5,245 nt of DNA from a virus (lineage: Duplodnaviria > Heunggongvirae > Uroviricota > Caudoviricetes), in the IMG/VR virus record IMGVR_UViG_3300018467_000008, positions 1 through 5,245 of that record; one strand, written 5' to 3'. A model generated the notes under the pieces. That model saw only the letters and a list, made by a program, of their open reading frames with translations, was not told the DNA's origin and made no database searches. The translations under genes and the position numbers were made by a program. Below, piece after piece: positions 1 through 5,245 of this stretch (positions are counted from its first letter, which is position 1; the number at the start of each line of letters is the position of its first letter).

Positions 1-552
1 ACCGGCTTCTTCATTTTCGCCCAGCAGAACACCAACTTCGGAAGTACCATCAGCTGTTGCCCACTCCATAGTGCGACCGTCAGAAGTGGTCAGAATCTGC
101 GCCACACTGGCGATGCCACCGTAGGATTTCATCTTCTCAACAACTTTCGCCAGGAATGTTTCTGGTACGGTATATCCGCCCTTTTCATCCTGAGCTACCC
201 CCTGGGCACGAAGTTCACGCAACGCCTTTCGTTCTTCTGATGTCAGCTCACTGGCACCGTGACGCATCCACTTATCAAAAACCTGAGCTCGTTTCTCATC
301 ATGTTGCGGATTGTTTTCCGGATCAAGATTCTGACGCTGCTCTTCCTCATTGCTTTCAATGTACGCCTGATCCTGACGACGCAGTTCTTCTTCGCGTGCA
401 ATTCGTTCATCAAGCGCTTCCAGTTCGGATTTTGCTTTGTTCCACTCAGTGCGCTGCTCTTCCGTCCATGCGTTATCACCAATTTTTTCATTCAGGGCGC
501 GCATGTCAGTTGCGATAGTATTACGTTTCTGTTTCAGTTCATGCAGTTTCAT
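1..552 (-). CDS. Major capsid protein, HK97 family, N-terminal 184 codons only (C-terminus lies beyond the window start)
   Basis: ATG at 552..550 preceded by AAGGAAACATC (Shine-Dalgarno AAGGAA, about 5-nt spacing). The frame is open all the way to position 1 with no stop. Translation begins MKLHELKQKRNTIATDMRALNEKIGDNAWTEEQRTEWNKAKSELEALDERIAREEELRRQDQAYIE, a charged, heptad-like helical N-terminus typical of the HK97 delta (scaffold-like) domain, followed by ...DEKGGYTVPETFLAKVV, which resembles the start of the mature capsid domain. It sits immediately downstream of the prohead protease, the canonical HK97 order. Not in the ORF track because it is truncated by the window edge. Confidence 0.85.
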   Translation of the reverse strand, partial: MKLHELKQKRNTIATDMRALNEKIGDNAWTEEQRTEWNKAKSELEALDERIAREEELRRQDQAYIESNEEEQRQNLDPENNPQHDEKRAQVFDKWMRHGASELTSEERKALRELRAQGVAQDEKGGYTVPETFLAKVVEKMKSYGGIASVAQILTTSDGRTMEWATADGTSEVGVLLGENEEAG

Positions 553-1165: not shown

Positions 1166-2384
1166 TGGTTTTTCCCTCATCGTTTTTTGGGGGCTTAAAA
1201 TCTCCTGCCGGGTTAGCAGCATTCACGCTTACCAGCATCTCATCCAGCCCTTCAACCGGATTCATATCCTCGAATGCGCGGGCCTCATTACGGCTCATCC
1301 ATCCATCGGTAATAGCGAAGTGATAGAATTGCGCGCGCTCCTGCGGAGTTCCGCGTAAAAGCCCCGTCAGATTGAACCTGACGTAATACCCGGCGGCTAA
1401 CTCAGCGCGGGTAAACAAGCGACGGTTAAGCTCCTGCTCCCAGTTCGTCACCCACGGCATCATCGTGTAGCGGACAAACTGAATCGCCTGCGCAGAAATA
1501 TTGGAGAAGGTGGCTTTTTCGAGGTCATTAATCATGTGCGCAGGAATATTGAAAATACCGGCGATCATTGAACGGTTCAGCTTCATCATGTCAATGATCT
1601 GAGCGTCAACTGGCGACACAGTCAGTGCCTTGTAATCCAGATCGGCTGGCAGCAGCATGGTTTTGTTTTCCTGGCGGCGTAACGCCTGCGATGCCTTCTG
1701 CCACTGATCTTTAAGCCAGCCCCAGCTTTCCTTATTGAGTCCGCTTTTAACGGATACTATCCCCGCCGGACGGGCATTACCGCTGAAGAAGCTTTCTGTG
1801 TACTTCTGACCGCTCATCCCCATGCCTATTGTTTCGGCATGTTGCATAATCGGACTCAGCCCCATCTTCTGATTATTACCCAGCGCACGGATGTGGATCA
1901 TATCGTCCGGACTGATCGCAAACGCCCCATATTCGTTGTACAAACCGTAGGTATATCGGCCACCAGTATTCATCAGCGTCGTTTCCCACGGCATACAGCA
2001 ATCCAGGGATATGACTTCACCGCGACGATTACGTTTCACCCAGGTATATCCATTCCCCCAGCCAAGGATGTGACGTTGCTTCAGTTCGCGCCATTTGTAG
2101 CTGGTTTGCCAGGTATTGGGCTCATCATGAACCAGATAAAACGCAGGATGATCGCGTGCGGGTTCAACCTTCCCCTTGTACCTGCGCATAACATGCAACG
2201 GCATCTGGGCAAGGCTGGAAGACAGGACATAGATACAGGAATACACCGCAGCCAGTTTCATCGCAGTCTCAGGACTGACATAAACGTCTGCCCGGAACAG
2301 CCCATCAGTATCAACGGCATCCCCGGTTATCGGGGTGGAAGGATTCTCCAGTGATTTACTTCTGAACAGAGCATCAAGCAGCAC
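1158..2384 (-). CDS. Portal protein, HK97 family
   Basis: About 408-424 aa minus-strand ORF, TGA stop at 1160..1158. It lies between large terminase and prohead protease. The region ...LFRADVYVSPETAMKLAAVYSCIYVLSSSLAQMPLHV...HPAFYLVHDEPNTW...ILGWGNGYTW has the look of an HK97-type portal core. Start chosen as GTG 2384..2382, preceded by GAAGGGGGACGC (Shine-Dalgarno-like), giving an N-terminus [16 protein letters not shown]. The track's GTG 2432 start would add a Trp-rich 16-aa extension ([10 protein letters not shown]) with no ribosome-binding site, which I judge less likely. Start is uncertain within 2261-2432. Confidence 0.9.
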   Translation of the reverse strand: MLLDALFRSKSLENPSTPITGDAVDTDGLFRADVYVSPETAMKLAAVYSCIYVLSSSLAQMPLHVMRRYKGKVEPARDHPAFYLVHDEPNTWQTSYKWRELKQRHILGWGNGYTWVKRNRRGEVISLDCCMPWETTLMNTGGRYTYGLYNEYGAFAISPDDMIHIRALGNNQKMGLSPIMQHAETIGMGMSGQKYTESFFSGNARPAGIVSVKSGLNKESWGWLKDQWQKASQALRRQENKTMLLPADLDYKALTVSPVDAQIIDMMKLNRSMIAGIFNIPAHMINDLEKATFSNISAQAIQFVRYTMMPWVTNWEQELNRRLFTRAELAAGYYVRFNLTGLLRGTPQERAQFYHFAITDGWMSRNEARAFEDMNPVEGLDEMLVSVNAANPAGDFKPPKNDEGKTNE

Positions 2385-2535
2385 GCGTCCCCCTTCTGGC
2401 CATAGCCAGTGCGCCCACCAGCAGTAAAGCACCGGACAAAATCAGAGCCGGAGCCATACCAAACTGCAGGTAAACCCCGCACGTAAGCAGGCCAAAACCA
2501 GCCAGCCCGATAACATCAGCAATTAGTGATTTCAT
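2374..2535 (-). CDS. Hypothetical small hydrophobic protein (53 aa, two predicted transmembrane segments) between large terminase and portal
   Basis: Read directly from the sequence, not in the ORF track. ATG 2535..2533 overlaps the large-terminase TGA stop (2534..2532) as ATGA; TGA stop at 2376..2374 lies 6 nt past the preferred portal GTG start. Translation: [53 protein letters not shown], two hydrophobic stretches and a basic C-terminal tail. Codon usage is CTG/GGC-rich like the neighbours. No Shine-Dalgarno upstream, so expression would depend on translational coupling. It overlaps the alternative extended portal frame, so it could be a chance ORF. Confidence 0.4.
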
Positions 2536-4265
2536 AGAATTAAGAGATCATCGTCCGGATCAAGAGATGAGAGGAAATCGTCAGGTTCTTTGAGCATTGC
2601 CCGACCGATCGTCATAATCAGTGCAACCGCACCATCGATTTTGTTTTCCGCCTGCTCCTTGACGGGCTTCACTAAATCATCGTTACCTGGCATGTTTTTG
2701 CCGACCACATTGCCGATACACCAGGTCATGATGGGATTGCCGTCATGATGAAAGCGTCCCGATTCAATCGCTGCTTCCAGCTCTTTCATAGGATCGGACA
2801 TATTGGCGAAGTTCTGGACGATAGTGACGGGATTCAGATCTTCATCAGCAAGGTCATGTGACAGCCCGGTCGCCCCGAAGGGGTCGATGGGTGACTCACT
2901 GACCGGGCTGATTTTGTTCGCCGCTTTGGCCTCTTCGAGGATGTAGCGATAATCCACCTCTGCACCATCGGTAACGGTCAGGACGCCCATTTCCACCCAT
3001 TTCTGAAAGCGTTCGGCTGTCCGTCTATCTTCATTTTTCTCGACGCTGTACACCGTGTCATACGGTACCCAGAAACGCGGGGCTACACTGTAGTAATGCG
3101 TTTTACCGTCAATCTCGCGGGTATAAAGTCGCGCCATGCTGTTCATATCCAGTTTACGCGCCAGGTCAAAGGCCAGAATGCACGGCTGCCCCTCGAACTG
3201 CTCAAGGGACAGTGATTTATCCTCGCAGCTCTGCCAGCTCACCAGGTTGAAATACGCCGAACGCGCCGACACCCAGATATTGAGGTGTTTTGTTTTAAAG
3301 ACGTTTGCCAGACGGGCGTTATTTTTCGCACGCTGCTGCTGACTTAACAAAAATTCGCGATAAACCGACACGCCAATATTTGGATTGGCTTTTTCCAGCA
3401 CCTGCGGGTCGGTCCAGTCGTCACCTTCATCAACGGTATAGATGATCCCGAACAGTTCATCGTTAGGCACCGAGCCGTTGAGCATCTCGATGACTTCCCG
3501 CCGTTTGTCGTAGCACGGCCCCTCAATGTTGTACCCGGCGGTAGTGATAGCCCACATCAGTGGCTGACGTCGCGCCCCCATCCCGGTAAGCATCGTGGTG
3601 TAAAGCGCATCTGTGGCGTGCTCGTGATATTCATCCACCACGGAACAGTGGGGTGATGAACCATCACCGGGGTTACCGATCAGCGGTTCAAACCGCGCGC
3701 CATCCTCCGGACGATTCATGTTTGAGGCGTTAACCTCAATCCCGAACGCTTCCGTCAGCATGGGTGTGCGTTTACACATCAGTCGCGCCGGGCGAAAGAC
3801 TTCCCACGCCTGTTTCTCTGTCGTGGCACCGGAATACACTTCCGCGCCAAACTCGTTATCACAGGCAAAACAATACAGGGCAACACCGGCAGAGATTGCC
3901 GATTTGCCGTTCTTACGGGGGATTTCGGTATACACCTCCCGGAAGCGGCGCAGCCGGGACCCTTTATTGACCCAGCCAAACGCACAGCAGACCACAAATA
4001 GCTGCCACGGCTCCAGCGTGATGGGCATCCTCTTGAATGCCCACTCACCCTTGGTGTGCGGCAACAGCTGAATAAATTTGGCGGCCCGTTCAGCCAGGTC
4101 CTTGTCGAAGCGGTAACGAAACGACTTACTTTTTTCCGCCATCAGGTCATCAAGATGGCGCTGGCAGGCCTGAATCACAAACTGGCAGGCCACAATCTTT
4201 CCGCGCACAACATCACGGGCATACTGATTGGCAGCATTTACGTTGGGGTAAGATTTCCGGCTCAT
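2532..4265 (-). CDS. Terminase large subunit (ATPase/nuclease), Terminase_1-like
   Basis: 577-aa minus-strand ORF, ATG 4265..4263, TGA stop 2534..2532. Walker A-like P-loop EIPRKNGKS at about residues 114-122 and Walker B-like hhhhDE in [10 protein letters not shown] at about residues 206-215. The C-terminal half is acidic, consistent with an RNase H-like nuclease domain. Its start overlaps the small-terminase stop (ATGA at 4262-4265) and it is followed by the portal, the canonical order. Confidence 0.95.
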
Positions 4266-4756
4266 GATTCGATGATTTTCAGAAACGGGTTAGTGGCTTT
4301 CTTCTGCCCCGCCAGGCCAATCAGACGCTGGCGGCTGCTGGGGTCGAGTCCGAGCATTGCCCCCGTGCTGCTCATCTCGGACTCCTGTTCTTTTTTGGCG
4401 GTCAGCTCCGGATTTTTGACCCTGCCGCCCATTGCACCGGTGATGGTGTTGCCCTGTATGGCAATATTTTTCACGGCACGTCGCCAGAACTCATAGGCCA
4501 CGCACCACCGCTCAAGCACCGCGAGGTCAGTCACGCACAACAGGCCCTGACCGCAGAGTTCTTTGGTTGTCAGTTGCCACATGATCGTGGCGAGAGGGAG
4601 ATCTTCTTCAGCGAACCACTCTGGTGGCTCAACACCTTTGATGGGCGTAAAAACAGGTTCATCTTTGTTCAGGGCTCGCTTGCCGGGGTTTCCGGCCAGC
4701 GCCTTGCGCGCCGTTGGCTTGGGGCGACGCCCGGAACGCCCCGCCGTTCCAGCCAT
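4262..4756 (-). CDS. Terminase small subunit, P27 family (Terminase_4-like)
   Basis: Minus-strand ORF with TGA stop at 4264..4262. N-terminal [34 protein letters not shown] matches the characteristic GRxGRPPKPTxLKxLxGNPGKRPLN signature of P27-family small terminases as I recall it. Preferred start is ATG 4756..4754 with AGGAG 8 nt upstream; the track's GTG 4765 start lies directly against that AGGAG and is unlikely. Immediately upstream of the large terminase with a 4-nt overlap. Confidence 0.9.
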
Positions 4757-4795
4757 ATGCGGCACTCCTGGTTAAATTTCATTTTTCGCGGGTAT

Positions 4796-4854
4796 AAAAA
4801 AACGATGGGGCGGGCAGTCCTGAAGGCGTCAGGTCACAGGGATTTGGCCCGCCC
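4796..4854 (-). terminator. GC-rich hairpin followed by a T-run on the minus strand in the HNH-small terminase intergenic region; terminator-like, or part of the cos/packaging-site region
   Basis: Plus-strand 4808-4815 (gggcgggc) pairs perfectly with 4847-4854 (gcccgccc), an 8-bp all-GC stem around a 31-nt loop. The loop holds a nested 5-bp hairpin (cctga 4819-4823 / tcagg 4829-4833). Read on the minus strand, the stem is followed by CATCG and then seven T (plus-strand A-run 4796-4802). The 5-nt spacer before the T-run and the large loop are atypical for a textbook intrinsic terminator. Confidence 0.3.
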
Positions 4855-4880
4855 TCCCCTCTGGCAGTGGGAACTGGTTC

Positions 4881-5229
4881 TTACTTCAGCCGTTCACGGG
4901 CCGTCTTCGCCTTATGACACGGCCAGCACAGGCTCTGCAGATTGCTGTCGACATCAGTGCCGCCATGCGATTTAGGGATGATGTGGTCAACGGTCTTCGC
5001 CTCACGCACCACACCAGCACGCAGACATAACTGACACAGGCCTTTGTCACGCTTCAGGACACGCGCGCGGATACTGTCCCACTTGGTACCGTAGCCACGC
5101 TGGTGGCGGGACTGGCCTGGCTTGTATTGCTTCCAGCCTTCGCTTTTGTGGCTTTCGCAGTAGCCTGACGGGTCTGTGGTGGTATTACGGCAACCTCGAG
5201 CACGGCAGGCTTTCGGGATTCGTGGCGGC
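4881..5229 (-). CDS. HNH endonuclease (phage packaging-associated), N-terminus missing at the contig end
   Basis: Minus-strand frame open from 5229 down to TAA stop at 4883..4881. Translation read by hand: ...PPRIPKACRARGCRNTTTDPSGYCESHKSEGWKQYKPGQSRHQRGYGTKWDSIRARVLKRDKGLCQLCLRAGVVREAKTVDHIIPKSHGGTDVDSNLQSLCWPCHKAKTARERLK. It contains paired Cys motifs (CQLC ... CWPCH) and the DH...N...H core of the HNH fold. No start codon is reached before the adapter-like sequence at 5230. Located directly upstream of the small terminase. Confidence 0.9.
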
Positions 5230-5245
5230 AGATCGGAAGAGCGTC
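5230..5245. other. Illumina TruSeq adapter fragment (sequencing/assembly artefact) at the window terminus
   Basis: The terminal 16 nt, agatcggaagagcgtc, are identical to the first 16 nt of the Illumina universal/Read-2 adapter AGATCGGAAGAGCGTCGTGTAGGGAAAGAGTGT, recalled from memory rather than searched. The sequence stops there, cutting the HNH ORF before its start codon. Confidence 0.85.

Follow-up and report, generated by a model that had tools for sequence, protein, structure and literature searches.

A very probable HK97-type cos between the HNH and small terminase genes of an SfI/SfV-like Escherichia coli prophage

The short gap that separates the HNH endonuclease gene from the small terminase gene in a stretch of 5,245 nucleotides of viral DNA (hereafter "the window") very probably harbours a cohesive-end site. 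Judged by comparison with its relatives, the segment 4772-4861 would be the cos of an SfI/SfV-like lambdoid E. coli prophage with HK97-type packaging, i.e., packaging by a small terminase subunit (TerS) and a large one (TerL) with an HNH protein as helper. This assignment is made because genome ends have been mapped in relatives, not because of the hairpin structure of the gap. The cos at this place is already known through experiments on the near-identical phage SfI, and it is an ordinary site; the extra beyond what was known is modest and concerns the cut-site half, which is common to divergent TerS families.

All genes of the window lie on the minus strand, in the order HNH, terS, terL, a 53-aa open reading frame, portal, prohead protease and major capsid. 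Those with mapped boundaries are the following:

4881..5229, minus strand: HNH endonuclease gene (Pfam HNH, E = 8e-17), stop codon at 4883..4881
4262..4756, minus strand: small terminase gene terS (Pfam Terminase_4, P27 family), ATG at 4756..4754, ribosome-binding site AGGAG at 4769..4765
2532..4265, minus strand: large terminase gene terL of HK97 type (Pfam TerL_ATPase and TerL_nuclease)
1-549, minus strand: 5' part of the major capsid gene (product starting MKLHELKQKRN...), cut off by the window end

Further Pfam matches in the window are Phage_portal and Peptidase_S78. The setting is, thus, that of an HK97-type module, with HNH upstream and terS downstream of the gap, followed by an HK97-type TerL, portal, protease and capsid. 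The capsid frame is missing from the list of open reading frames because it has no stop codon within the window. The 53-aa frame between terL and the portal gene (2374-2535, minus strand) encodes a strongly hydrophobic product that is annotated as hypothetical in the RefSeq entry of the identical prophage and that had no match in a Pfam search. At the other end, the last 15–16 bases of the window (5230-5245, AGATCGGAAGAGCGTC) are Illumina adapter read-through and not phage DNA; the identical E. coli prophage reads ...GGCGGCAT (the HNH start codon) where the adapter begins, so the ATG of the HNH gene is clipped in the window. The HNH protein itself is 92% identical to that of SfI and homologous to HK97 gp74 (E = 3e-10). 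Its residues ~8-30 (5120-5225, minus strand) form an N-terminal CxxxC...CxxH motif (CRARGCRNTTTDPSGYCESH), a domain that HK97 gp74 lacks and that resembles the zinc-ribbon HNH nickases, which have been called site-specific (PMC3592412).

Over 5229 nt, the window differs from a prophage of E. coli strain 135 (NZ_CP080260.1) at 9 positions and, judged by this match, is evidently part of an E. coli prophage; the cos region is found there unchanged at 3,987,693-3,987,853. The RefSeq annotation of the identical prophage places the genes in a late operon on one strand, comprising a Q-like antiterminator, holin, endolysin, spanin, HNH, cos, terS, terL, portal, protease and capsid. A 161-nt query across the region matches 1111 of 5426 complete E. 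coli genomes; the prophage family is very common in this species.

The gap itself has the features that an earlier, sequence-only reading had described. It consists of 124 non-coding nucleotides between the HNH stop codon and the terS ATG (4757-4880) and is the only sizeable non-coding stretch in the window, given that 1-549 codes for the N-terminus of the capsid protein. It contains a perfect 8-bp inverted repeat (4808-4815 / 4847-4854) enclosing a 5-bp hairpin (CCTGA/TCAGG, 4819-4823 / 4829-4833), the pentamer CATCG followed by seven T on the minus strand (4807..4796), and a G-rich tract, GAGGGGAGGGCGGGCC, at 4861..4846 of the same strand. An Rfam search with 4650-5000 at E ≤ 1 returned nothing. 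From this structure, that reading had proposed either that the cos of an HK97-like phage is recognised and cleaved here or that the gap holds a leaky terminator. The location was correct, and the reason for choosing it incidental.

Central to the cos assignment are the termini of SfI. Run-off reads from both ends of SfI virion DNA miss 10 nt, 5'-TGCCCGCCCC-3', relative to the prophage, and these define the SfI cohesive end (PMC3636060). The same 10-mer constitutes the last 10 nt of the SfI record and recurs without change in the window, where the sequence at the cut is, hence, that of the experimentally determined ends of a close relative:

4807..4816, minus strand: cohesive end of 10 nt (minus strand TGCCCGCCCC, plus strand GGGGCGGGCA), within which the downstream stem arm 4808-4815 lies

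The TerS proteins of SfI and of the window are 98% identical. More broadly, the region is 84–94% identical to the genome-end junction of SfI, SfII, SfIV, SfV and related Salmonella and E. coli phages. Among these, the serotype-converting phages of Shigella flexneri (SfI, SfV, SfII, SfIV) are 88–94% identical, have the same placement between HNH and terS and share the cohesive end TGCCCGCCCC, whereas their host is S. flexneri and that of the window E. coli. The window departs from SfI by an A instead of a G at +1 (numbered from the cut), by a G-rich box that is one G shorter and carries a T-to-C change, and by changes in the spacer. The SfV and SfIV records start 17 nt upstream of the cut; these starts were considered as physical ends and rejected, since they reflect arbitrary linearisation. 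A cos determination for SfV is reported in the papers on SfI and SfIV. In the full-text literature, TGCCCGCCCC in either orientation retrieved, among the matches listed, only unrelated primers.

Two further records break at the homologous place. That of the Edwardsiella phage EPP-1, described as "corrected using PhageTerm" (PMC11043334), ends in ...GTAC TGCCCGCCTC and starts with CCCCAATTTTTATGACCGCGAAAAATG, and the record of HK97 ends in ...GAC CGCCGCCAAA and starts with GTTTGAATTT.... The proposal that an HK97-like packaging module recognises and cuts its DNA in the gap is, thus, borne out by the identical SfI 10-mer together with the breaks in the SfI, EPP-1 and HK97 records. The ends of the window's phage would be 10-nt 3' overhangs, a polarity which the SfI paper itself (PMC3636060) does not state and which we infer because a run-off "gap" corresponds to recessed 5' ends and because HK97 has such an overhang. 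From the 10-nt gap in SfI and the geometry of HK97, the plus-strand nick is predicted between 4816 and 4817 and the minus-strand nick between 4807 and 4806.

HK97 is a model system with which the site can be compared. Its ends are 10-nt 3' overhangs; its TerS binds a minimal 15-bp site at +15 to +29, CTAACCCGATTTTTT, the binding depending on a C:G pair at position 21 and on an A/T tract; by stalling the motor, the bound TerS brings about the cut by TerL at cos; and cleavage is stimulated by the HNH protein gp74 (PMC11331095, PMC9410871). The Discussion of PMC9410871 gives 10-nt 5' overhangs for lambda and 12-nt 3' overhangs for HK97, numbers that look swapped; it is contradicted by the Figure 1 legend of the same paper and by the later PNAS paper, both of which give 10-nt 3' overhangs for HK97. 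The HK97 cos shares with the window the G-run, the motif AAATC, exactly 21 nt of spacing, the GAC and the N10 geometry, as do about 70 HK97-like viral contigs, and in both phages a conserved block with CCCG and an A/T tract lies at about +12 to +30, where HK97 TerS binds. In contrast, the HK97 overhang is CGCCGCCAAA as opposed to TGCCCGCCCC in the window, the sequence of the right-hand module differs, and in HK97 cos lies about 320 bp away from the HNH gene.

At the protein level, the window TerL is 26% identical to HK97 gp2 (E = 4e-30), and its sole sequence relative in the PDB is 6Z6D, the HK97 TerL. Between the P27-family TerS and HK97 gp1, BLASTP, hhalign and a PDB profile search found no sequence link. 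An AlphaFold model of the window TerS from the single sequence was unusable (pLDDT 39.5), while an alignment of 42 sequences gave a usable core (pLDDT 77.5); Foldseek with the TerS model returned no match at E ≤ 0.001, the highest TM-scores being those to HK97 TerS (a weak fold match).

The cos of phage lambda (cosQ-cosN-cosB) yields 12-nt 5' overhangs, is cut without the need for an HNH protein and involves gpNu1 R-sites and IHF. Its logic is similar to that of the window, with a partial-dyad nicking site, a conserved element upstream of the cut and, on the side that is packaged, a region for TerS binding, which is putative in the window. Both sites are located where the lysis genes meet the head genes in a late operon under Q antitermination; however, there is no sequence similarity between them. 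A lambda-type cos was rejected for the window, given a TerS of the Terminase_4 (P27) family, a TerL whose relative is that of HK97, the presence of HNH, and mapped relatives with 10-nt ends.

The conservation of the region was analysed in a scan of GTDB genomes with TerS, which yielded 43 loci whose TerS proteins are 49–99% identical to that of the window and which belong to many genera of Enterobacterales and to Cupriavidus. Anchored on one motif, the upstream regions form a nearly gap-free alignment of 39 sequences (38 relatives and HK97), and the information per column was computed over the 38 relatives. The following blocks are distinguished, all on the minus strand, with positions relative to the cut and the information content given for each:

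4846..4861 (-55 to -40): G-rich box GAGGGGAGGGCGGGCC, 1.18 bits, containing the upstream stem arm 4847-4854
4838..4845: AAATC core (4841-4845; -39 to -35), 1.93 bits, then CCT
4820..4837 (-31 to -14): variable spacer, 0.67 bits, holding most of the inner hairpin 4819-4833
4817..4819 (-13 to -11): GAC, 1.74 bits, with A and C invariant, directly 5' of the cohesive end
4807..4816 (-10 to -1): cohesive end block, 1.20 bits
4803..4806 (+1 to +4): ATCG, 0.56 bits, variable columns
4796..4802 (+5 to +11): T-run of seven T, 1.57 bits, two T columns invariant in 39/39
4772..4795 (+12 to +35): block ATACCCGCGAAAAATGAAATTTAA, putative TerS recognition, 1.76 bits
Flanks outside the named blocks: 0.5–0.6 bits

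Within the upstream half, conservation is highest in AAATC. A43, A44 and T45 are invariant in 39/39 sequences including HK97, and the distance from AAATC to GAC is 21 nt in nearly all site-spanning loci of the SfV-type and HK97-type families. A signature derived from these elements, AAATC-N21-KAC-N-GCC, occurs once in the window, versus 0.01 matches expected, and a single match at the homologous place was found in 186 of 218 loci, among them all the site-spanning loci of both families. HK97 and its relatives have the G-rich box in the form of a G-run, and the box of the window has one G fewer than those of most close relatives. In HK97-like viral contigs (L141-L216), whose cos regions are otherwise near-identical and whose spacing from AAATC to GAC is constant, the G-run, some 40 nt upstream of the cut, comprises between 7 and 11 G. 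In SfI and many other relatives the sequence is GAC-N10-GTC, a partial dyad of the kind that two symmetric nicks at a distance of 10 nt would lead one to expect; in the window, ATC takes the place of GTC. In the 38 relatives, the cohesive end is followed by the T-run and by ATACCCGCGAAAAATGAAATTTAA.

The conservation of these blocks across genera is far beyond chance, and the hairpin is within chance. The sequence-only reading had put forward an alignment of related cos regions as a check and had named a lack of hairpin conservation as a refutation; what the alignment returned is conserved blocks and a hairpin that is not conserved, which does not refute the cos assignment, based as it is on the mapped ends of relatives.

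The right-hand block, ATACCCGCGAAAAATGAAATTTAA at +12 to +35, is a putative recognition site for TerS. It is conserved across TerS proteins of 50–100% identity and is positionally equivalent to the minimal site of HK97 TerS (+15 to +29, CTAACCCGATTTTTT), the window having TACCCGCGAAAAAT at the equivalent position. Alternatively, the block might serve as a translation or transcription signal for terS; it is A/T-rich and is followed in the window after 2 nt by the ribosome-binding site and after 15 nt by the terS start codon. Such a signal is unlikely, however. In Xenorhabdus, Photorhabdus and Morganella, the distance from the block to the terS start is 40–70 nt longer, while that to the cut stays fixed, which argues for a role in cos over one in translation; in addition, a scan reported no promoter-like site at the block, and HK97 TerS binds the positionally equivalent segment. 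A site for IHF in the A/T-rich block was also considered, and inspection by eye found no match to the consensus.

Intrinsic terminators are characterised by a GC-rich stem, a loop of about 3–8 nt and a U-tract that abuts the stem (0–2 nt). The gap shares with them a GC-rich 8-bp stem and, 5 nt beyond it on the sense strand, seven U, so that a leaky rho-independent terminator, ending the lysis/HNH transcript instead of or beside cos, had been suggested. This is very unlikely, since the likeness ends there: the loop comprises 31 nt and contains a second hairpin, the 5 nt CATCG stand between the stem and the T-run, and the RNA fold is no more stable than those of shuffled sequences (z = -0.06, -0.64 and -1.35 in three frames). 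A consensus terminator scan does not report the element. Nor do the relatives favour a terminator, in that covariation is absent: the RNAalifold consensus of 39 sequences has 4 pairs only (-1.84 kcal/mol), the two central pairs of the outer helix are broken in 23–24 of the 39 sequences, and the T-run is kept in relatives without the stem. Moreover, late transcription must read through the gap because HNH, terS, terL and the head genes follow a Q-like antiterminator on one strand. What speaks for termination comes from beyond the window, where a few distant relatives from Xenorhabdus have, at the equivalent position, T7 directly behind a hairpin of canonical look. In all probability, the T-run of the window does not serve as the U-tract of a terminator but is a conserved part of cos, an A/T tract that separates the cut from the putative TerS box.

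In these Xenorhabdus loci (L113-L119; L117:1090-1122), the cut region lies in the loop of ACCCAAGG-GACCGCCA-CCTTGGGT, which is followed by T7; in L117, the stem has 9 bp, the loop 8 nt and the fold a z of -2.57. This hairpin may extend the dyad symmetry of the nicking site, or it may be a true terminator that overlaps cos.

The 8-bp hairpin of the window, which the sequence-only reading had taken as the mark of a functional segment, is incidental, a by-product of a G-rich box and a C-rich cohesive end that are complementary in composition. As a functional unit it fails on three counts: its arms lie in two independently conserved blocks, covariation is absent, and the stem is missing in relatives with the same TerS. 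Dinucleotide shuffling of the region, repeated 2000 times, yielded a perfect inverted repeat of 8 bp or more with a loop no longer than 40 nt in 5.5% of cases, and such repeats are present in 12 of 166 tiles (124 nt each) sampled over the window. The inner hairpin occurs only in the window, in one identical contig and in one other contig; most close relatives have the spacer GACGTCTTCCGG instead of GACGCCTTCAGG, which breaks it.

That the complementarity between G-rich box and cohesive end has been selected, as a DNA cruciform or as an mRNA stem-loop for packaging or mRNA stability, is highly improbable. Part of the G-rich box can indeed pair with the C-rich cut region in many relatives, the longest Watson-Crick runs of cognate pairs ranging from 3 to 8 bp (8 bp in the window, Shigella and Gilliamella), and 78% of the cells of the outer helix are paired over 39 sequences. 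However, in a permutation test that allowed any register, cognate and non-cognate combinations of box and overhang were alike in mean Watson-Crick run (5.46 versus 5.35, p = 0.22) and in duplex energy (-19.16 versus -19.33 kcal/mol, p = 0.72), and shuffles match the observed values for the outer helix in 9–10 of 500 trials, a range that arises without structure. HK97 lacks the pairing (longest run 3), and two viral contigs (L024, L071) whose TerS is 99–100% identical to that of the window have, with the same overhang, the G-rich box GGGGGAGGTC, which breaks the stem. A G-quadruplex in the G-rich box was likewise rejected; the window has only three G-tracts, and in HK97 relatives the box is a plain poly-G of variable length.

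With the cos assignment at hand, a course of events can be proposed by analogy with HK97. TerS would bind at +12 to +35 downstream of the cut, in the way HK97 TerS does at +15 to +29, and the bound TerS would position or stall TerL such that the cut falls at the cleavage module. Terminase, helped by HNH, would then nick the minus strand at 4807/4806 and the plus strand at 4816/4817, leaving the 10-nt 3' overhangs, and packaging would start at the cut and proceed in the direction of terS, terL and the portal gene. The upstream module of G-rich box, AAATC and GAC would constitute the TerS-independent part, read by the TerL nuclease or by HNH.

Support for such a division of the site comes from a scan of viral contigs, in which the signature of the left half was found joined to at least five different right modules, i.e., the SfV type, the HK97 type, TTTTTTCACACCGCCGCAGGTTAGAAAAC, AAATTTTTACGCG..AAAATAAG and others. 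The TerS proteins behind the alternative right halves are of the Terminase_4 family and 21–31% identical to that of the window, with TerL proteins of 31–57% identity; behind the HK97 right half stands gp1, which is undetectably related to the window TerS. The left half, conserved from HK97 to the prophages of Cupriavidus, would, thus, be the substrate of a conserved nuclease machinery, and the right half a TerS-specific address. The co-variation of the right module with TerS is suggestive and not specific, because TerL also diverges among the right-module types.

In its most general form, this reading holds that the upstream half (G-run, AAATC, 21 nt, GAC|NGCC) is a universal, TerS-independent cleavage/termination subsite of HK97-type cos, with an exchangeable, TerS-specific downstream half; we put it forward tentatively, rating its chances at somewhat less than even. 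The upstream half may be read by the TerL nuclease together with HNH or possibly by the portal channel, and the upstream box lies 25–45 bp inside the cut, which corresponds approximately to the stretch of DNA that the motor holds when packaging terminates. Functionally, the half would compare to cosQ plus cosN of lambda. In the accessible papers on HK97 packaging, the downstream TerS site alone has been dissected, and the upstream box goes unmentioned.

Sequences resembling the left module (GGGGATCAAAATC..N..GGGACCGCC) were also encountered beside non-terminase genes in four loci (L226, L315, L305, L316), with a ParB-N/N6-methylase fusion and a C5 methylase as neighbours in L305 and a phosphoribosyltransferase gene in L315. 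They may represent cos sites of satellites or of phages with another gene order, or remnants.

For annotation, the assignment fixes the genome ends of a prophage family that is found in about a fifth of the complete E. coli genomes, and a hairpin plus T-run at this location should not be labelled a terminator. The only part that might repay further work is the conserved, TerS-independent upstream module. If confirmed, the two-module layout would provide a sequence rule by which cos ends can be predicted directly from prophage sequence, and it would call attention to an upstream element that has so far gone unstudied in the model system HK97.
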